The position numbers and the translations under genes are program-made. From Saprospiraceae bacterium (GTDB taxonomy: Bacteria > Bacteroidota > Bacteroidia > Chitinophagales > Saprospiraceae), in NCBI GenBank assembly GCA_965223405.1, contig CBDCWO010000006.1, forward strand, positions 2,904,364 to 2,968,363: DNA of 64,000 nt, given 5' to 3'. The notes below the pieces were generated by a model. The model was not told the DNA's origin. It ran no database searches and was given only the letters and a program-made list of their open reading frames with translations. Shown here piece after piece: positions 4,221 through 54,331 of this stretch (positions are counted from its first letter, which is position 1; every line of letters starts with the position of its first letter).

Positions 4221-5564
4221 TTACATATTCGCATCAAATTGTTCCATCAAATCAGATAGTTTACGTACGATATCGGGATATTGATCTGCCAGGTTTTCCG
4301 TTTCTTCAATATCCCGATCCAAGTCATATAAAGAAATTGGAAATTTTCCCTGCTTCGGTTCTGACCATCCGATACTCTTTTTCAGGTGAAGTTTCCACTT
4401 TCCTAATCGAATGGCTTCTAAATCTCCATTACGCGCATAATAATAAAAAGGGCGTTCGGCCACTTTCGAGTCATTTGGTTGCATCAGGTAATTACTAATA
4501 TCAATTCCATCATATTTGAGATCAGGGGGAATCTGGGATCCGGAGAATGTGGCCAAAGTGGGTAGCAGATCCAATGTGGTCACCATTTCATTACTTACGG
4601 TACCCGCAGCGATTTTGTTCGGCCAGGTGATGATGCCGGGCACGCGTTGCCCACCTTCCCAAGTTTGCGCTTTTTTCCCCCGCAGTGGTTTTGCAGAACC
4701 CACTTGGGGTCCATTGTCGGAGGTGAAAATGAAAATCGTATTGTCATACAATCCTTCTTGTTTTAATGTTTTGGTAAGTTCTCCGACGCTCCAATCCAAT
4801 TCCATAATGACGTCTCCATACATTCCTTGTTGACTTTTTCCTTTAAAATCCGGCGAGACGTGTAATGGAGTATGAGGCATATTGTGTGCCAGGTAAATGA
4901 AAAATGGGGTTCCTTGATTTTCTTTTATTTGCCGGATGGCTTCCTCAGTATACCTTTTAGTCAAAAATCTTTGATCCGGACCGCTTTCGATTAGTTCCTG
5001 GTTTCGATGTAATGGAAGTGGGGGAGACTGAAATTCATTGTGATTGTAGTAATGATTGTCCATATCATTGGAATAGGGTACTCCGAAATATTCATCGAAC
5101 CCATGATTGTTGGGCATAAATTGGGGCAGATGTCCTAAATGCCATTTTCCAATACAAGAAGTAAAATAGCCGTTATCCCGCAACATTTCTGCCATGGTAT
5201 GGGTTTCCGGAGGAAGTCCATCCTCAGAATATGGAAAGAGCACCGCTTCATGAAGGTTGTGCCGTTTTGGATACAGACCCGTTAGTAACCCGGCTCTGGA
5301 TGGGGTACAAACCGTCGCCGGTACATAAAAGTTTGTAAAACGAATGCCCGCTTGAGCCAGTTGATCTAAATGTGGGGTTGTATATCCTTTGGCCCCGAAG
5401 CATCCCACATCCGCATATCCCTGGTCGTCGGTAAAAAAGATGATGATGTTGGGCTTGCTACCGGCAAAATTGCTTTGATTGGGGCATGCGGAAATAACAA
5501 TAATAAGTATGACACAGCCCAATACTTTTTTGATGTATTTAGAAATTTCGTTCTTCACTTTCAT
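4221..5564 (-). CDS. Arylsulfatase-family sulfatase (formylglycine-dependent)
   Basis: 447-aa ORF with a lipoprotein-like signal, the IIFFTDDQG metal-binding start and the CTPSRAGLLTG formylglycine motif (C-x-P-x-R). Confidence 0.9.
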   Translation of the reverse strand: MKVKNEISKYIKKVLGCVILIIVISACPNQSNFAGSKPNIIIFFTDDQGYADVGCFGAKGYTTPHLDQLAQAGIRFTNFYVPATVCTPSRAGLLTGLYPKRHNLHEAVLFPYSEDGLPPETHTMAEMLRDNGYFTSCIGKWHLGHLPQFMPNNHGFDEYFGVPYSNDMDNHYYNHNEFQSPPLPLHRNQELIESGPDQRFLTKRYTEEAIRQIKENQGTPFFIYLAHNMPHTPLHVSPDFKGKSQQGMYGDVIMELDWSVGELTKTLKQEGLYDNTIFIFTSDNGPQVGSAKPLRGKKAQTWEGGQRVPGIITWPNKIAAGTVSNEMVTTLDLLPTLATFSGSQIPPDLKYDGIDISNYLMQPNDSKVAERPFYYYARNGDLEAIRLGKWKLHLKKSIGWSEPKQGKFPISLYDLDRDIEETENLADQYPDIVRKLSDLMEQFDANM

Positions 5565-5876
5565 GATGACTTAGGTATAAGAGAGGTAAAAGGTAATTAA
5601 AATATTGTTTAAAAGGGAAATTGGAAGCGGTATCATCTGATGATGAAATGACAAAACCTCCGGTCGTCTGAAAAGAATGCAGGGAATAAGATGAGCCTTG
5701 AACGAGTAAACTACAACCACAAACCAAAAAATTACAAAACACAACCAACTTTTGACTATTTGTAGGTAGAAGTAATTGACCAAGTGTCGAATTCGGTATC
5801 GAATTTGCAACAGTAAACTCAACATCCGATGTGACCATCTGAAAACTCAACGTCTAATTATCAAAATTGTCTTGTT

Positions 5877-6479
5877 GTGGAAAATATTCAACTTCTCATT
5901 TCAGAAATTCAAAATAGATTGCAATCCGGATTATCGTCACGATTGACCTATCATCATTTTGATCACACCCTTTCGGTTGTTGCCACATGTAACCAGTACA
6001 TTGCACATTATGGAATTGATAAAAAGCAGGCTCAATTACTACGACTGGCAGCATGGGGGCATGATTTGGGATTTGTCAATACCTATAAAGATCATGAAGT
6101 GGAAAGTGCCAGACTTACGGCTGAGTTGATGTCCAAGTATGGATATGACAAGGATGACATTCAAATAGTGGAATCCCTGATTCTGGCAACCCGCATACCA
6201 CAGTCTCCCAATACATTGCTGGAAAAGATCCTATGTGATTCAGATTTGGATTATCTTGGTAAGGCCAATTATTTTCCCATCAGTAATACACTATACCAAG
6301 AGTTAAAAAGTTATGGTGTAATCCAAGATGAAGACCATTGGTTGGACTTGCAAATCTCCTTTTTAAAAAAGCACCATTATCATACCCTATTTGCCCGAAC
6401 CCATCTTGCTCCTCAGAAAGAACAAGTTTTACAAAAATTACAAAAACAAAAACAGGATTCGTTCAACTCAGCAGCTTAA
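5877..6479 (+). CDS. HD-domain phosphohydrolase
   Basis: 200-aa ORF with a GTG start. It carries the H...HD signature (YHHFDHTLSV, WGHDLGF) and a later D (CDSDLDYLG). Confidence 0.75.
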   Translation: MENIQLLISEIQNRLQSGLSSRLTYHHFDHTLSVVATCNQYIAHYGIDKKQAQLLRLAAWGHDLGFVNTYKDHEVESARLTAELMSKYGYDKDDIQIVESLILATRIPQSPNTLLEKILCDSDLDYLGKANYFPISNTLYQELKSYGVIQDEDHWLDLQISFLKKHHYHTLFARTHLAPQKEQVLQKLQKQKQDSFNSAA

Positions 6480-6488
6480 CTAGCTAGC

Positions 6489-7044
6489 CTAGTAATAGTG
6501 AGTCTACTCTGAAAACTGTCATATAAAAAGAATACTTGAAATAATGCAAAATATTGTATACTCCCCCGCCACCCTAACCCTAAAGGGCCTCCGCCCACAA
6601 ATCCATTCTTTACCCTAGCCCAAAAGGGAATGCAGTCGCGCATTCATTTACAGCAAGTTATGCGGGAGGACTTTCCTTTAGGAGTCGGAGGCGAGCGTGG
6701 GCAAATTCTAAAACCAAATTATATTTACCGAAGGCTTTGATGTTGACTTTTCGGAGTGGACTCACTAGTACTAGTGAGTCTACTCTGAAAACTGTCATAT
6801 AAAAAGAATACTTGAAATAATGCAAAATATTGTATACTCCCCCACCACCCTAACCCTAAAGGGCCTCCGCCCACAAATCCATTCTTTACCCTAGCCCAAA
6901 AGGGAATGCAGTCGCGCATTCATTTACAGCAAGTTATGCGGGAGGACTCTCCTTTAGGAGTTGGAGGCGAGCGTGGGCAAATTCTAAAACCAAATTATAT
7001 TTACCGAAGGCTTTGATGTTGACTTTTCAGAGTAGACTCACTAG
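6489..7044. mobile_element. Two tandem 276-bp MITE-like units (family A), each bounded by about 21-bp TIRs
   Basis: Unit 1 is about 6497-6768 and unit 2 about 6773-7044. They differ by only a handful of substitutions. Each starts with agtgagtctactctgaaaa and ends with ttttc(g/a)gagt(g/a)gactcact. The units are joined head to tail through actagtactag. Confidence 0.65.
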
Positions 7045-37719: not shown

Positions 37720-38421
37720 TCAAATGTATCTTTCCCGCTTTTGTAAATTTATCAGAGCACCTAGGATAAAAACTACCGTTCCCACGCTTAAGAAAATCCG
37801 GCTTTTCCAAACGATTTGCTTCCAGGCCAGCTGACTGAATCCCCTGCGTGGGTCATAGGGATTTAAAAATACGTTCCAAAAAGTATCTTCCAGGAACTCA
37901 CTGAATATGGTCAATCCAACTCCGAGTATTACCATAACAACCGCCGTTGCATTACCATTTTTTATCCAGGTGGAAATCAAAAAAGCCAAACTACCCAGGA
38001 AGCAGATGGGAAACAACAATTGGATCGCTACTGAAACTGGATTTATTGGATACAACAACCAGGAACCAAGAGCAGCGAAAAGTATGAGTAAAATAAATAT
38101 TTGAGTAAATATCAGTACTAATCGAACCAGCCAAACTTTATAACGATAATCCGGAATACCAAAGTGGATTTCCAACATACGCGCATCCTCATCCCGTTGA
38201 ATCCCAAATACCACGGGATAAAAAATCAATAGAATGGCTGGAAAAAAAGTTAAAGAATAGATTGACCCAATATTGATTTCATCGTTTTCAAAAACACTTA
38301 TCACCATAAAAAATAGATAAAAAGCCAATGCGGCTACCAAAAACCAAAGAAAGCGTCCGGCAAAGATGACTTTCAAGTTATACTTGATCAAACTGCGGAT
38401 ATTTGTAATTGTATTGCGCAT
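37720..38421 (-). CDS. ABC-2-type permease-like 6-TM membrane protein, translationally coupled to the RND-ABC fusion gene
   Basis: 233-aa polytopic ORF. Its ATG overlaps the TAA of the upstream gene (TAATG at 38419-38423). Confidence 0.7.
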   Translation of the reverse strand: MRNTITNIRSLIKYNLKVIFAGRFLWFLVAALAFYLFFMVISVFENDEINIGSIYSLTFFPAILLIFYPVVFGIQRDEDARMLEIHFGIPDYRYKVWLVRLVLIFTQIFILLILFAALGSWLLYPINPVSVAIQLLFPICFLGSLAFLISTWIKNGNATAVVMVILGVGLTIFSEFLEDTFWNVFLNPYDPRRGFSQLAWKQIVWKSRIFLSVGTVVFILGALINLQKRERYI

Positions 38422-41400
38422 TAGTTTTTAATATTCTTTAATAAACACAAATAGGCATCCTCCAAAACGGGATCAACGGAAATGGCCGATTCCTGGGGTT
38501 TATGTAGGGAAATACATCGGACCCGTATGTGATCACCTTCACGCAGGTGATTAACTACAACCTCTTCTGATTCAACCGTGGCAAAGTCCACTGCCGGGAT
38601 GATATATTCCCAAACCAGTCCTTGCGCCAGACCAAGCATATCCTGTGGTGAACCCTGGTATTTTACAGCACCATGATCCAACACGGCCAATTGATTGCAA
38701 GAACTGGCGATATCTTCGATGATATGAGTAGAAAACAGGACAATCCGATCACGGCTTAATTGTACCAGGAGGTTTCTGAAACGAATACGTTCGCGAGGAT
38801 CCAATCCGGCTGTCGGTTCATCGACGATTAATATTCGAGGCAAATGAAGTAATATTTGAGCGATACCAATACGTTGTTTCATTCCACCGGAAAAGGAACC
38901 GATTTTTTCATGTTTGCGATCCAACATATTTACAGAATCCAACACATAGAGTAATCGTTCCTCCCTTTTATTGCGGTCATGCAATCCTTTGAGGATGGCT
39001 TGATAATCAAGAAAAGCCCAGGCCGTCATATTGTCATAACTTCCAAATGCCTGAGGTAGATACCCAATTAATCCCTGAAGTTCTTCACGTTTCTCCTGCG
39101 TATCAATACCATTGATCCAGATCTTGCCATAACTTTGTTCGAAGATTCCAGAGATGATACGCATTAAAGTTGATTTCCCGGCTCCATTGGGTCCTAGCAG
39201 CCCATACATGCCGGTACCAATATTCAATGACACGGTATCAAGGGCCTTAAATGGGATTTTACGTCTACCAAGCAGTGGGATGCTGATAATCGAGCGATAA
39301 TAAAATCGTCTCAGCTTTCCCTTTATCCTTTCAACCTTTAGCTGTTTACGGTAGAAATATGCCGACGATTTATAAACAATCAATACCAAATACCAAACTA
39401 AACCCCAAAAAATGGTATATCCCCATTCCTCCCATTTCTGATTCATTTGAAAAAGTAATACCAGCGGACTGGCCCAAAATAGGAGTTCTCCCAAAATCAT
39501 TGGGATCCATTTCTTTTTATCAGAATAAACTAAATTAAAGGCTAACTTGAACGGTTGCCATATTCCCAATAATAGAAGATAAATGCCTATTCCAATCAGG
39601 AGTATCCAAAAGCCATCCTGCAAATAAGAAAATGCAAACCATCCTAAAAAGATTAGAAGAGGAATTTTCCAAATAAACTCACTTAACAATGCACCCCAGC
39701 GAATCTTACCTTCTTCGGATTGAAGAACAAAAGATGGTGTTTTGCTGTTTGACCACTCTCTTGAAAACCGACCGGGTCGATTGTAAATCTTTACCAGGTT
39801 TTGGACCTTAATGTATAATGCTTCATCGGTAGAGATCAGCCTGGTCTGAGCACGTTTTAGACTCGCTAAAATAAAATATGTAATAGCCGGAATCAGGAAG
39901 ACCAATAACAGGATATCCAGCAATTGCCATAGAAATGAAGTTACTCTGAAATAGATCAGTAACCCTCCACAGACGAAAAGGATGACATTCAATATTTTTA
40001 TCCATAGAGATAAACCTCTAAACCAATTAATGGTATTTTCTAACCCCAAATAGACTGTGGGGATCACGATTAAAGTAAGTACTGTTCCCAAAGCCAAACC
40101 TCCAATCACAGTTATTGCAAAAGGTGCTCCAATTACACTGACATATTCTGCTGTACCCAACGCCAAGGGAAACATAGCGGCAATAGTAGTAATAGCTGTA
40201 ATCAGGATTGGGCGTAACCTATGAAGTCCAGCAGTGATTAATGCCCGGATTTTACGATAGCCCTTTCTCCTCAAAGCATTGACATAATCAATCATGATGA
40301 TGCCATTGTTGACAATAACACCCAAAAGGATTAAAAATCCGGTGAGGGTATTGGCGTTGAATAATCCATTTCCGGTGATTGTTAAGGCTAATAGTGACCC
40401 TGTAGCGGCTAGTGGCACGGAAAACATCAATACAAAAGGTGCTGACAAAGATTCAAACACTGAAGCCAGGATAATGAAAATAAGGAGAATGGCTGCTCCT
40501 GCCAGTGCTTTAAAATCTTTGATCTGATCCTGGGCTGCTTCCATTTCGATAGCAATTCCCGGAGGGACCGGGTAGTTTGAGATTAGCAACTTTATGCTTT
40601 CCTGGTGCGCTTCCAGAAGTTCTTTTGACTGATTGGCTTCTTGAGAGCGAGTGTAAGAAATCTGTATTTGTTTCTGTTGGTTGATACGCCTGATATCATC
40701 ATAACTTTCACCTGTACGGATAGCAGATAAGGTGGACATTTCATGAGCTCCACCTTCTTGATCAATAACTTCCAACTTTTTGAGATCTGACATGGTTTTG
40801 GGTTGGAATCCTGATTGAAGGTCTTCATTATCGCGTATGATAATATTGTATTCATCGTCAACATATCTGAACTTGGTGTCCGCAGGTGCCTCTTGTTCGA
40901 AATTTCTTAATGCGATAGCAATATTTTCCGGAGTGACTTTATTTCTGGCCAGGGTTAAGGGGTCAAAGGCCAGCAATACTTCAGGTCGGTTGCCACGAGT
41001 GCTAAGATTAGCATTCCGGGTATCGTCCAGGTTTTGGATATAATATAGAAGATCCTGGGCAACTCTCTGCAACAATCCATAGTCCTCTCCTTTCACGACA
41101 ATTTTTTCCTGATTTTCACCAAAACCCATTAGTTGTCCCAGAGCATCCAATCCACCTAGGCCTTGAGAACCCTCACCGGAATTACTGGAAGCAAAACTAA
41201 TTCGAGCACCTCCGATGCGGCGGGTGAGATCTTCAATTTCCGATTTGATATCATTATAGGATCGATTATCTATTTTTTCAAAATCTTCTTTAAGCTTAAT
41301 ATTTACGACAGCATCTTCCTCCTGGATACGACTGCTGATATCTTGTTTCTCGGCGAGACCCTCTAGTTTAGATTCAATTTCGAGGACAATCTTATCTGTT

Positions 41401-43112
41401 TTCTCGATGGTACTGCCTTTGGCCATGGTTACAAAGACATCGATCTGATCCCTTTCTACTTCTTCAAGAGTATTAATACTGATAGCCAGAACGGCAAATG
41501 TAGTGATGAAAAACAAAACTAATCCACCAAGAATAGTTCTTGCCGGATATCGCAAACTGCTTTTTAGTAATACCAGATAGATGCGGGATGTTCGGTTCAT
41601 TTCATTCCGGCGACCAAATAGTCCTTTTTGTCGCTTACCATAAAATCCCAAACCAAGTAAAGCCAATACCGGAATCAACAACAAAGCGACTAATAAAGAA
41701 ACCATCAATGTAGATATAATCGATACGCCAATGTGTTTTCCGATCAGAGCGACCAGATAATTTCCAAAAAACAGAAAAGGGATAAATACTGTAGCCGTAG
41801 TCAAGGTTGCGGCAAAAATGGCCTTGGCTACTCCTGATACGCCCACAGAGACCGCTTTATCTGTCCGGATACCTGTAGATACTTTACGGTAAATATTCTC
41901 CAATACGACTATGCTGTTATCAAGTAACATTCCTATCGCCAGAGCCATACCTACGAGGGTTAAACTATTGATGGTTATTCCAGCTCCATAAAACAAATTG
42001 AAAGCGGCGAAAACAGAAACCGGAATCGATAAGGCTATTACAGAAACTAAACGAAGATCTTTAAGGAAAATCCATAATACGAAAACGGCCAGCAAACCCC
42101 CGATCAGGGCAAGATCTATTATCTGCTGGATATTTTCCTCCATGGTATCTGCAAGATTATTTTGAATTACAATTTGTACATCCTTGGCATGCAATTGATC
42201 ATTTAGTTGATTGATTAACTCTTTACAGCGATGTGAAAGCTCGATGATATTGGCTTGTGAGGCTTTGGTGGCAGTAAGAGAAATGGCGTCCTTTCCGTTA
42301 ACCCGGCTAATAGATGTCTCCTTGTCTACTCCAAAAGATATTTTGGCAACATCCCTTAATAGGATTGGTCCCGGGGCCATAACGGTGTTTTCAATATCTT
42401 TTACTTGGGTATATTCGGAGGCCGTGCGTACAAAAAGTCTGCGGTTTCCTTCGTACACGAATCCCGCCAGCGTTCTACTTCCTGAGTTCTGCATTAGCCG
42501 CGAACGCACTTGATCCGGAGTAATTTTATGGGGCTCGCAAGCTTGCTTATCCAATAGGATTTCAAGGGTTTTCTGTTGTCCTCCAAAAATATTAAGTGAA
42601 GCAATTCCGTCCAGGTTTTCAAAGGCTGGTCTGATTTCTTTTTCCGATATATTACGTAATCGATCGGTTCCTCCGCTACCACGAATCTGTAGTTCCAAGA
42701 ATTGATTGGTCAGCTGTTGCACATCTATTTTTGAAACTCGAACCAGGATATCTGATGGCAACTGACTCTTAACCGCATCAATCTTTTGCTGTAGTTTCAA
42801 AAAGACATATTTGAACTTAATTGATTGATCAAAACTGACTTGGATAAAAGCCCTATTACCATTAATTCGGGTATCGATCTTTTCTACTCCCTCCATGGTT
42901 CCGATTACTCCTTCCACTGGTATCACCCCCTGTTGTTCCAGGTATTGAGGGCTGATTTGTCTGGGCGATCCCACCTGTATAAAGAGCATAGGGAGCTCAG
43001 CATTTGGAAGTAACTCCACCGGTAAATATCGATAGGAAATATAACCCAATAGGCTCAAGCCTATGAATATCATACAGATGGTTACTTTCCTATGGATGAA
43101 TGCTAACTTCAT
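38421..43112 (-). CDS. Fusion protein: complete RND (AcrB-type) permease, 2 TM helices, split ABC nucleotide-binding domain carrying a 4-TM insert
   Basis: Uninterrupted 1563 codons. The RND part is aa 1 to about 1030 (nt 43112 to about 40025; TM4 GMLLDNSIVVLENI, TM10 LLGVIVNNGIIMIDYV). The NBD beta-1 strand LYIKVQNLVKIYNRPG starts at aa 1098. The hydrophobic insert is aa about 1140-1250. The NBD core is aa 1286-1563 (nt 39257-38424) with GPNGAGKST, LPQ, FSGGMKQR, ILIVDEPTAGLD and FSTH. Confidence 0.85.
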   Translation of the reverse strand: MKLAFIHRKVTICMIFIGLSLLGYISYRYLPVELLPNAELPMLFIQVGSPRQISPQYLEQQGVIPVEGVIGTMEGVEKIDTRINGNRAFIQVSFDQSIKFKYVFLKLQQKIDAVKSQLPSDILVRVSKIDVQQLTNQFLELQIRGSGGTDRLRNISEKEIRPAFENLDGIASLNIFGGQQKTLEILLDKQACEPHKITPDQVRSRLMQNSGSRTLAGFVYEGNRRLFVRTASEYTQVKDIENTVMAPGPILLRDVAKISFGVDKETSISRVNGKDAISLTATKASQANIIELSHRCKELINQLNDQLHAKDVQIVIQNNLADTMEENIQQIIDLALIGGLLAVFVLWIFLKDLRLVSVIALSIPVSVFAAFNLFYGAGITINSLTLVGMALAIGMLLDNSIVVLENIYRKVSTGIRTDKAVSVGVSGVAKAIFAATLTTATVFIPFLFFGNYLVALIGKHIGVSIISTLMVSLLVALLLIPVLALLGLGFYGKRQKGLFGRRNEMNRTSRIYLVLLKSSLRYPARTILGGLVLFFITTFAVLAISINTLEEVERDQIDVFVTMAKGSTIEKTDKIVLEIESKLEGLAEKQDISSRIQEEDAVVNIKLKEDFEKIDNRSYNDIKSEIEDLTRRIGGARISFASSNSGEGSQGLGGLDALGQLMGFGENQEKIVVKGEDYGLLQRVAQDLLYYIQNLDDTRNANLSTRGNRPEVLLAFDPLTLARNKVTPENIAIALRNFEQEAPADTKFRYVDDEYNIIIRDNEDLQSGFQPKTMSDLKKLEVIDQEGGAHEMSTLSAIRTGESYDDIRRINQQKQIQISYTRSQEANQSKELLEAHQESIKLLISNYPVPPGIAIEMEAAQDQIKDFKALAGAAILLIFIILASVFESLSAPFVLMFSVPLAATGSLLALTITGNGLFNANTLTGFLILLGVIVNNGIIMIDYVNALRRKGYRKIRALITAGLHRLRPILITAITTIAAMFPLALGTAEYVSVIGAPFAITVIGGLALGTVLTLIVIPTVYLGLENTINWFRGLSLWIKILNVILFVCGGLLIYFRVTSFLWQLLDILLLVFLIPAITYFILASLKRAQTRLISTDEALYIKVQNLVKIYNRPGRFSREWSNSKTPSFVLQSEEGKIRWGALLSEFIWKIPLLIFLGWFAFSYLQDGFWILLIGIGIYLLLLGIWQPFKLAFNLVYSDKKKWIPMILGELLFWASPLVLLFQMNQKWEEWGYTIFWGLVWYLVLIVYKSSAYFYRKQLKVERIKGKLRRFYYRSIISIPLLGRRKIPFKALDTVSLNIGTGMYGLLGPNGAGKSTLMRIISGIFEQSYGKIWINGIDTQEKREELQGLIGYLPQAFGSYDNMTAWAFLDYQAILKGLHDRNKREERLLYVLDSVNMLDRKHEKIGSFSGGMKQRIGIAQILLHLPRILIVDEPTAGLDPRERIRFRNLLVQLSRDRIVLFSTHIIEDIASSCNQLAVLDHGAVKYQGSPQDMLGLAQGLVWEYIIPAVDFATVESEEVVVNHLREGDHIRVRCISLHKPQESAISVDPVLEDAYLCLLKNIKN

Positions 43113-43431
43113 TTAGGTGTTTACTATTTCCATTGTCATTGTCATTGTCATTTGTCCATTTTCTATATGTACTTTCATTCAAAATTCCACCCCCTGCCCC
43201 CTCAAGGGTCCCTCAAGGGGGACAAAATTCTTCCATTACCATTGTGATTGCTATTGTCATTGCTATTGCCATTTGCTTATCCAATCTCCATTCATACTTT
43301 CATTCAAAATTCCACATCACATTTCCATTTGTCATCAACTTTTTCAGAAATACGGATACAATTACTATTGTCATTTATTTCAAGCAGATTTTCATTTTCA
43401 TTTCTTTATCTACTCAACATTGAATTCAATT
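43113..43431. repeat. Structured repeat spacer between the two RND genes
   Basis: Two degenerate 125-bp direct repeats each contain a hexamer tract ((cattgt)n-like at 43130-43160 and 43231-43276) and an identical 20-mer actttcattcaaaattccac (43171-43190 and 43296-43315). An imperfect 25-nt palindrome ccccctcaagggtccctcaaggggg lies at 43197-43221. Confidence 0.8.
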
Positions 43432-53551: not shown

Positions 53552-54331
53552 TCAATTTTTTCTAATACCCAATAGATTGACCACACAGTTTTCCATATTA
53601 CCTACGGTAAACGCAAATTCCTGCTTTATTTTAGTGCCATCGGAGTAGCTGGCGGGACTCCAATTGGGCATGCAACGAATTGCGTTTAATAATAAGGTAT
53701 CGATTTTTTCATCCTTAAAAGGCCAAAAAATATGCGCATTAACGACTTGTCCTAGATTATCAATGGTAAATTTTACGGTAGCTAAGTCGAGATTCTGAAA
53801 GGTACTATCCGGAATTTGACTTAAGGCGTTTTCCTTCAGATAGTGTCTCAGCTGTTGTACACCACCGGGATATTTTGCATCACTTTGGGGAAGTACGGCC
53901 AGTTTAAAATCAATGACTTTGATTTCATTATGACTTAAAGTGTTATCAGGAATGTATTGAACCACAACGGCTATATCAGTTCCTGAGTCGGCCACGGTGA
54001 TCAGATCTTTTTGTTTCTGACTGAGGGTATCGTTTTTACTCCTGGCCGTTTTGGTCTGGCCTCGATAGAGTGTTATTATCTCTACCGAAATATATTCTTT
54101 GATCCAGGAAGATTGATATTTCTCATTCAGATCAATTAGGGTTTGTGCTGTTTTGAGTTCATCCTTTGTAATCGAAAAATACGGATAGATCGGATTGATT
54201 TCAAAATGAAGTTCATTGCTAAATCGCTCTTGGGATATACTAAAATGAGGGAAAGAGAGCCACACAAATATCACAGTTACAAAGAGATGTTTGATCAATT
54301 TAGCAACAAATTCAGGCATATCGAGGTTCAA
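53552..54331 (-). CDS. Membrane-anchored protein with TonB-C-terminal-like domain
   Basis: 259 aa with an N-terminal TM or signal sequence. The C-terminal KYPGGVQQLRHYLKEN...ATVKFTIDNLGQVVNAHI...NAIRCMPNWSPASYSDGTKIKQEFAF fits the TonB_C fold pattern. Confidence 0.6.
   Translation of the reverse strand: MNLDMPEFVAKLIKHLFVTVIFVWLSFPHFSISQERFSNELHFEINPIYPYFSITKDELKTAQTLIDLNEKYQSSWIKEYISVEIITLYRGQTKTARSKNDTLSQKQKDLITVADSGTDIAVVVQYIPDNTLSHNEIKVIDFKLAVLPQSDAKYPGGVQQLRHYLKENALSQIPDSTFQNLDLATVKFTIDNLGQVVNAHIFWPFKDEKIDTLLLNAIRCMPNWSPASYSDGTKIKQEFAFTVGNMENCVVNLLGIRKN

Follow-up and report, generated by a model that had tools for sequence, protein, structure and literature searches.

Resistance-nodulation-division (RND) pumps, which are proton-driven, and ATP-binding cassette (ABC) pumps, which are ATP-driven, are taught as separate solutions. 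In the tripartite RND systems with paralogues, AcrAB-TolC and MdtABC, the permease has 12 transmembrane (TM) helices and two periplasmic loops and belongs to the Pfam family ACR_tran; their layout of one operon with one membrane-fusion protein (MFP), one outer-membrane factor (OMF) and two adjacent RND genes recurs in the locus described below. Cooperation between an inner-membrane exporter and an RND duct has, to our knowledge, so far been inferred only genetically. Here, a gene that joins the two pump classes was analysed in a stretch of 64,000 nucleotides from a Saprospiraceae bacterium (assembly GCA_965223405.1, contig CBDCWO010000006.1, positions 2,904,364 to 2,968,363), called the window below. 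The gene, named FUS, encodes an RND permease followed by an ABC nucleotide-binding domain (NBD), so that two pump classes are welded into one protein, and the weld is kept across several phyla in a fixed set of seven genes.

Compared with described systems, the fusion combines known kinds, a tripartite RND system and a type V ABC exporter; an NBD split in two is its second unusual feature. FUS adds to the layout of AcrAB-TolC and MdtABC 530 C-terminal residues, which hold six helices and the NBD. The folds of this NBD and of the permease encoded beside it, P233, are like those of type V exporters (NosDFY, PmtCD, Wzm-Wzt, ABCG, ABCA), with the differences that the FUS NBD is joined to an RND pump, that its strand beta-1 with the A-loop is set apart by four membrane helices, and that P233 lacks a significant match to Pfam ABC2_membrane. 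The E. coli ABC-2 exporter YbhGFSR has two NBDs, two different six-helix permeases and an adjacent MFP gene (PMC7190983), which parallels the free-standing ATPase ABC1 with the fused NBD, the permeases PermM1 and P233, and the MFP of the present locus. It differs in that the YbhF NBDs are fused to each other, the operon has no RND genes and there is no M1-like domain. MacAB-TolC likewise combines an ATP-driven inner-membrane part with an MFP and an OMF (PMC5985334, PMC8277102), whereas MacB is a type VII ABC protein with four helices, its own periplasmic domain and no RND module. No description of an RND-ABC fusion was found in the open-access full-text literature, in line with the first-pass annotation, a model's reading of the window from its letters, which knew of no characterised protein that joins the two. 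In the databases the fusion proteins stand under automatic names, a double name at JGI and one of two names at NCBI ("efflux RND transporter permease subunit", "ATP-binding cassette domain-containing protein"), and their partner permease stands as "hypothetical protein", which is a warning for annotation.

The first-pass annotation had reported an open reading frame of 1563 codons without internal stop. The frame is real, although its strand had been overlooked: a plus-strand reading was rejected, as translation of the plus strand at 38421-43112 meets stops throughout, and the open frame exists only on the minus strand. Pfam ACR_tran covers aa 4-1022 of the product (profile positions 4-1018 of 1021; 507 bits against a cut-off of 28, E 1e-151), and ABC_tran lies at aa 1292-1435 (98 bits against a cut-off of 25, E 9e-28). 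A complete RND permease and a complete NBD in one protein, as had been proposed, are therefore confirmed by Pfam domains that are conserved in homologues. In the hydropathy profile the 12 RND helices are followed by a pair at aa 1035-1053 and 1067-1085 and by a group of four between aa 1141 and about 1256, and the AlphaFold model of the C-terminal part shows the same two plus four long helices. Every motif quoted earlier was located in the translation, namely LYIKVQNLVKIYNRPG at aa 1099-1114, FKALDTVSLNI at aa 1288, GPNGAGKST at aa 1307, LPQ at aa 1352, FSGGMKQR at aa 1407, ILIVDEPTAGLD at aa 1427 and FSTH at aa 1460.

The spread of the fusion was checked by homology search, as had been suggested, with a positive outcome in three data sets. 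A search over 5.8 billion proteins returned at least 119 full-length homologues of 1,548-1,577 aa and 53-78% identity, all with both domains; named isolates among their sources include Portibacter, Maribellus and Prolixibacteraceae. When one genome per GTDB species was scanned with a beta-1 peptide pattern, 231 species-representative genomes proved to encode a relative, and 80 of these loci were fetched and analysed. About 72 of the 80 hold an uninterrupted frame of 1560-1613 codons (Saprospiraceae, Prolixibacteraceae, Marinifilum), four have shorter frames (L044, L049, L051, L052) and the rest are truncated by contig ends; the genera and strains are Lewinella, Portibacter, Mariniphaga, Maribellus, Draconibacterium orientale DSM 25947, Sunxiuqinia and Marinifilum, and the complete chromosome of Gaoshiqia hydrogeniformans is included. 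Lastly, an exhaustive HMMER search used the C-terminal 534 residues of FUS as query and 50%-cluster representatives as targets. The RND-NBD junction is spanned in 53 of the best 150 representatives, which comprise, besides 16 fragments, complete proteins of the long form (29) and of the short form (8, with 1,389-1,458 aa). More distant members come, by source name, from Fidelibacterota, Latescibacter and Sumerlaeota/BRC1.

These data bear on the alternative that the fusion is spurious in this assembly, an RND gene and the gene of a separate membrane-anchored ATPase having been run together by a frameshift, a misassembly or a lost stop. Such an account could call on the shorter frames in four of the 80 loci and on a 526-aa representative, P0138, whose sequence opens at TM13 and which might be a C-terminal module that stands by itself. 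However, 119 homologues with identity down to 53% share the continuous frame, it is intact in about 72 of 80 independent genomes that include cultured strains and one complete chromosome, and divergent long and short forms occur in other phyla, with the junction residues kept at the protein level among homologues. An assembly artefact is therefore excluded for all practical purposes, its probability being negligible, and the fusion is genuine, as first claimed.

Two single members of the family are recorded here. P0138 begins at the TM13 position and carries beta-1, the insert and the NBD without the RND part; either it was cut off at the edge of a contig or it belongs to a lineage that keeps the C-terminal module as a separate gene. 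Locus L042 (CAJVYQ010000047.1) has the full conserved gene order under the label of an uncultured Deferribacteres metagenome-assembled genome, all other loci being from Bacteroidota, and the label may reflect a binning error or gene transfer.

The RND part of FUS has a 1 + 5 + 1 + 5 hydropathy pattern with large loops at aa 28-330 and 545-868, and its closest PDB matches are MdtB, MexB and AcrB. It stays under the curated cut-off of each of the named NCBIfam RND families (RND_permease_2, 425 against 1250; MdtC, 252 against 1774; MdtB, 237 against 1584; AcrB, 173 against 2150). The nearest unfused RND relatives are the SwrC-type pumps of Firmicutes (NCBIfam RND_permease_2), with 31-34% identity and 71-74% coverage when a short-form fusion is the query.

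The AcrB relay consists of D407-D408 in TM4, K940 in TM10 and R971 in TM11. In FUS, TM4 reads LLDNS (D398-N399) and TM10 reads VNNGII (N935-N936), so that D-N and N-N stand in place of the D-D and K of AcrB, while the first Asp and the TM11 Arg (R967) are retained. Both pairs are invariant across the fusion family. The first-pass annotation had taken these residues as a sign that the canonical relay may not be used. The residues are as it reported, but the reading is not supported, and they were rejected as evidence for an ATP drive: the same DN/VNN pattern occurs in 61 of the 63 nearest unfused relatives, which are about 1,030-1,050 aa long, are mostly clostridial pumps annotated as SwrC, and have no NBD. 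The neighbouring unfused permease RND1 reads DN/VND. The deviation from AcrB thus carries no information on the NBD; judged from these alignments, it is a trait of the RND subfamily, unrelated to the fusion and uninformative on whether ATP has replaced the proton-motive force (PMF). Since the relay residues are common to unfused relatives, the RND part of FUS can still be PMF-driven.

This observation weakens a rival explanation, in which FUS is an ATP- or dual-powered RND pump whose NBD drives the RND domain through the insert and TM13-14, replacing or supplementing the proton relay. For it speak the strongly conserved covalent join, the replacement of the residues corresponding to D408 and K940 of AcrB, and the fact that the RND part of FUS diverges more than the unfused RND1. 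The second point is offset by the unfused relatives just described; further evidence on this explanation comes from the NBD, its partner permease and the short forms below.

The fused NBD carries the full set of catalytic residues, with K1313 in Walker A, Q1354 in the Q-loop, the signature FSGGMKQR, the catalytic E1432 in Walker B and H1463 in the H-loop. All five elements, the catalytic Glu included, are invariant in alignments of 119 and 52 homologues, from which the NBD is predicted to be catalytically competent. Its nearest NCBIfam families are GldA (166 against a cut-off of 403) and DrrA (154 against 312); the fused NBD stays under every curated NCBIfam cut-off, and the likeness is one of class. 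Foldseek gave TM_1403, NosF, LptB and ABCA as top structural matches. The chains of TM_1403 and NosF (285-308 residues) align over 275-304 columns, taking in a C-terminal accessory domain at aa 1491-1563, and the alignment of the free ABC ATPase to FUS runs to about aa 1555-1560. By its modelled fold, the fused NBD is of the ABC-2 (type V) class.

The NBD is not contiguous in the chain. Free-standing relatives (about 290 aa, 41-51% identical) align to FUS from aa 1289 onwards starting at their own residue 16-18, so the first NBD strand is missing at this point. To locate it, a splice test was employed, in which 18-aa windows from aa 1030-1282 were set before the NBD core and scored with a hidden Markov model (HMM) of 48 free-standing ATPases of about 290 aa. 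The score peaked at +8.3 bits for windows ending in IKVQNLVKIY (mean 0.46, standard deviation 1.18, 236 windows), the alignment start moved from HMM position 17 to 3, and the twelve top windows all include this segment. In an AlphaFold model of aa 1020-1563 (pLDDT 77.6), DSSP assigns a strand to aa 1101-1107 (model residues 82-88), which must pair with the NBD sheet, because every other strand of the model is in the NBD. The beta-1-like segment (LVKIY.R) is conserved in the alignment of 119 homologues and present in all long and short forms. Beta-1 (aa 1099-1114) is thus about 173 residues away from beta-2 (aa 1288), and the splice test, the model and the short forms support an NBD in FUS whose first two strands are parted by a membrane insert of four helices, in agreement with the interruption described in the first-pass annotation.

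That annotation had also argued that even helix counts, two and then four, keep all NBD pieces cytoplasmic. Hydropathy, the model and the loops bear this out, since the loop charges obey the positive-inside rule. The TM13-TM14 hairpin brings the chain back to the cytoplasm and is not present in short-form fusions. The insert (aa 1115-1287) contains a conserved cytoplasmic motif, RF.REW, four membrane helices (aa about 1139-1256; residues 120-144, 148-176, 183-207 and 211-237 of the C-terminal model) and a basic linker. It departs from the NBD three residues past Y1110, which is the A-loop tyrosine by the pattern L.K.Y and by known NBDs such as MJ0796 (Tyr11); the exit therefore lies just past the adenine-stacking residue. 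This exit, followed by the invariant motif Y.R..RF.REW, connects membrane helices with the nucleotide site and favours an NBD that acts on the RND domain, but the insert helices show much weaker conservation than the NBD or the cytoplasmic loop of P233, which counts against it. In NBD1 of CFTR, the regulatory insertion occupies the same beta-1/beta-2 hairpin with about 30 soluble, disordered residues, and the site tolerates extra sequence. In the fusions the insertion amounts to about 173 residues with four membrane helices in the long forms and to about 40-55 soluble residues in the short forms; an NBD split at the A-loop by membrane helices bears on the tolerance of the fold. The idea that the six extra helices derive from a former type V membrane domain was tried and rejected, as hhalign gave a probability of 0.4% between the linker and insert and the P233 profile.

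A separate membrane partner for the NBD is encoded directly behind FUS. The ATG of P233 overlaps the FUS stop codon (TAATG), and the two genes are translationally coupled. P233 has 3,983 homologues, all labelled hypothetical. Its AlphaFold model (pTM 0.77) matches type V ABC membrane domains only, with PmtD, NosY, ABCG2 and ABCG25 as top Foldseek hits, and its best-conserved stretch is the cytoplasmic TM2-TM3 loop, the site of the coupling helix in type V permeases. A six-helix permease of type V fold is therefore encoded beside the NBD gene. Matches to Pfam ABC2_membrane were weak and amid noise, seen in 2-5 of 39 P233 homologues with a best E of 8e-4. Because P233 has a type V fold and the NBD is of the matching class, the fused NBD has, according to the models, an ordinary ABC membrane partner. 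Such a dedicated, translationally coupled permease speaks against an NBD that drives the RND domain. P233 stays with FUS even where the other cluster genes are lacking: in locus L005 (1-20801) the two genes stand without the rest of the cluster, beside S9 peptidase, DUF4932 and beta-lactamase-like genes.

FUS and P233 close a cluster of seven minus-strand genes with short or negative spacers, in the order ABC1, PermM1, OMF, MFP, RND1, FUS and P233 (Table 1). This conserved set, including the second RND gene and P233, was overlooked by the first-pass annotation, as were the short-form fusions described below, but its account of FUS as a genuine fusion stands. The order was found in nearly all of the 80 loci and is repeated in Maribellus luteus and Portibacter marinus amid unrelated flanks. 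RND1 lies upstream of FUS in most loci, and the arrangement of two adjacent paralogous RND genes with one MFP gene is kept. The MFP and OMF genes, upstream of FUS on the same strand, are also kept in most of the 80 loci.

Table 1. Coordinates of the FUS gene, its modules and the other genes of the cluster within the window
Feature	Position	Strand	Basis
Fusion gene FUS	38421..43112	minus	1563 codons, ATG start, TAA stop; Pfam ACR_tran and ABC_tran; 119 full-length homologues
RND permease module, aa 1-1030	40023..43112	minus	12 TM helices, two periplasmic loops; ACR_tran, hydropathy, PDB matches
Extra helical hairpin TM13-TM14, aa 1035-1089	39846..40010	minus	Hydropathy; AlphaFold helices 17-37 and 41-70 in the model of the C-terminal part
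Separate NBD strand beta-1, carrying the A-loop tyrosine Y1110 (LYIKVQNLVKIYNRPG, aa 1099-1114)	39771..39818	minus	Conservation, model strand, splice test
Insert in the beta-1/beta-2 hairpin, aa 1115-1287	39252..39770	minus	Hydropathy, loop charges, AlphaFold helices
NBD core, aa 1288-1490	38643..39251	minus	ABC_tran; invariant motifs; Foldseek matches
C-terminal accessory domain of the NBD, aa 1491-1563	38424..38642	minus	Beta-rich in the model; within the region matched to TM_1403/NosF
P233, 233 aa, six-helix type V (ABC-2) ABC permease	37720..38421	minus	Hydropathy; AlphaFold/Foldseek
Unfused RND permease RND1, 1039 aa	43432..46551	minus	ACR_tran, 691 bits; 29% identity to the RND part of FUS
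Membrane-fusion (periplasmic adaptor) protein, 351 aa	46548..47603	minus	HlyD_D23, HlyD_3; conserved position
Outer-membrane factor (TolC-like), 503 aa	47638..49149	minus	OEP, two repeats; conserved position
Large permease PermM1, 1091 aa	49160..52435	minus	Pfam; conserved position
Free-standing ABC ATPase ABC1, 301 aa	52456..53361	minus	ABC_tran; DrrA/GldA class; full catalytic motifs; paralogue of the fused NBD

PermM1 consists of an N-terminal ABC-2-like membrane domain, an M1-peptidase-like domain and a Golvesin_C domain, and gives a weak match to PmtD. The zinc motif HExxH and the motif GxMEN were looked for in its M1-like domain and neither was found. A catalytic M1 peptidase was therefore rejected, and the domain is probably non-catalytic, as judged from these motifs.

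The short-form fusions provide a comparison for both the join and the cluster. All six extra helices are absent from them, so that the stretch from RND TM12 to Walker A is free of added helices; the RND-NBD join is a soluble linker of about 70-100 aa, and the beta-1/beta-2 site is interrupted by about 40-55 soluble residues. Since the short forms do without the six helices, the insert is argued not to be an essential coupling device, and the soluble linker fits a tether better than a rigid element that transmits force, both of which speak against an NBD that powers the RND domain. A conserved, tryptophan-rich amphipathic motif (for example SWRWILLFW, AWRWVVLFW) was noticed about 10-30 residues past TM12 in P0167, P0170, P0177, P0204 and P0256, where it stands in the place of TM13-14 of the long forms.

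Three short-form loci were examined. They encode an MFP, an ABC ATPase, a small ABC-2 permease, an RND permease, a multi-helix protein of 934-961 aa with an M1-like region and the fusion, and an OEP gene is present in one of the three. By blastp, the unfused RND permease is an orthologue of RND1 (37-39% identity) and the ATPase an orthologue of ABC1 (41-45%); the ABC1 orthologues are 40-43% identical to the fused NBD. The small permeases match ABC2_membrane_2 and are detected by the HMM of the P233 family (E 2e-6 to 1e-4), which does not detect the large proteins. The large protein gave one weak blastp match to PermM1, in one of the three loci and in the M1 region only. From these matches, the same seven components appear to recur in short-form systems of distant phyla. 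Their adjacency is swapped, with orthology assigned by HMM and blastp: the long forms pair ABC1 with PermM1 and FUS with P233, and the short forms pair the ABC ATPase with the small permease and the PermM1-like protein with the fusion. The swap is most simply read as a sign of one complex that includes all four ABC parts; such a complex would need only one FUS subunit and would fit an RND trimer with one FUS.

Taken together, the reading we favour, and hold at about even strength, is that of two-stage export, with a type V exporter driven by ATP and tethered to a duct of RND, MFP and OMF. In FUS, the N-terminal 1,030 residues are a SwrC-type RND permease that would form a PMF-driven trans-envelope duct, probably with RND1, the MFP and the OMF, and the C-terminal 530 residues are an NBD held at the membrane by the six extra helices, which would work with P233 and probably also with PermM1 and ABC1. 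In the first stage, ATP hydrolysis would drive type V export of an amphiphilic substrate from the cytoplasm or the inner leaflet, and in the second the tethered RND/MFP/OMF assembly would take the substrate on the periplasmic side and expel it across the outer membrane. The covalent link would set proximity and stoichiometry, possibly with a trimer of one FUS and two RND1 and a heterodimeric ABC unit of the fused NBD, ABC1, P233 and PermM1. YbhGFSR sets a precedent for such a unit, as an MFP-associated ABC-2 exporter that has two NBDs and a pair of unlike permeases (PMC7190983). An amphipathic peptide or lipopeptide as substrate, by analogy with the relatives SwrC and PmtCD, is only a hint. 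If so organised, the locus would offer a natural test system for direct substrate hand-over from a cytoplasm-to-periplasm exporter to an RND duct.

Several points weigh against this tethered two-stage exporter. RND pumps work as trimers, ABC transporters as dimers. We infer the assembly of the fused NBD with P233, PermM1 and ABC1 from gene order and fold, and the FUS:RND1 heterotrimer of 1:2 is a guess modelled on MdtB2C, an RND heterotrimer of the 1:2 type. P233 has no significant Pfam match, scans of it against Pfam and NCBIfam being empty. Between the long system of the window and the short ones of L083, L084 and L085 the RND part of FUS is 27-30% identical and RND1 37-39%, and the ACR_tran score is lower for the former (507 bits) than for the latter (691 bits); because of this faster divergence, the RND part of FUS may not be a conventional transporting protomer. 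Lastly, the insert adjoins the A-loop and is followed by the invariant motif, which could mean more than anchoring.

A second explanation is looser, namely that two independent homodimeric ABC-2 exporters, (NBD)2(P233)2 and ABC1-PermM1, stand beside an RND homo- or heterotrimer, or that the NBD is regulatory, with no hand-over. The fusion would then serve only co-expression or co-localisation, or the NBD would be an ATP-dependent regulator of the pump. The adjacencies of ABC1 with PermM1 and of FUS with P233 in the window, the FUS-P233 pair standing alone in L005, and the complete catalytic motifs in both NBDs, as homodimers would have, are consistent with it. The opposite pairing of the orthologous parts in short-form systems argues otherwise, as do the seven components that travel together across phyla, pointing to a single function, and an NBD homodimer would demand two FUS per RND trimer or a bridge between trimers. 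On balance, we consider this explanation doubtful.

The ATP- or dual-powered RND pump has to face the same geometry, since NBDs are dimeric and RND pumps trimeric, and with the relay residues of unfused relatives, the flexible linker of the short forms, the poorly conserved insert helices and the coupled P233 it is rated unlikely. The related claim that the fused NBD is coupled allosterically or mechanically to the RND cycle, so that ATP and PMF are integrated in one polypeptide, appears similarly improbable; in it, signals would pass between the membrane domain and the nucleotide site along the helices inserted three residues past the A-loop tyrosine. Were it true, FUS would be the first transporter to unite primary and secondary energy coupling and hold the first NBD with its nucleotide site wired directly to membrane helices. 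The gene occurs in the cultured hosts Draconibacterium orientale DSM 25947, Maribellus luteus, Mariniphaga sediminis, Marinifilum breve and Gaoshiqia hydrogeniformans, which puts genetics and cryo-EM within reach.

Some smaller features of the cluster and its flanks were also noted. An open reading frame of 259 aa (53552-54331, minus strand) without Pfam or NCBIfam match lies directly upstream of the first cluster gene, and a promoter and terminator scan of the cluster gave none above the shuffled background. In L006 a PD40/DPPIV_N beta-propeller gene (4568-6928) stands between RND1 and FUS. In the window, the RND1-FUS spacer (43113-43431) is 319 bp long, much more than in related loci, where the two genes either overlap or have about 70 bp between them. 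Within the spacer there is a direct duplication of about 125 bp, in which GGAATTTTGAATGAAAGTA occurs twice against zero expected, and there are runs of the hexamer repeats ATTGTC/ATTGCT and the G/C-rich segment CCCCCTTGAGGGACCCTTGAGGGGGCAGGGGG.

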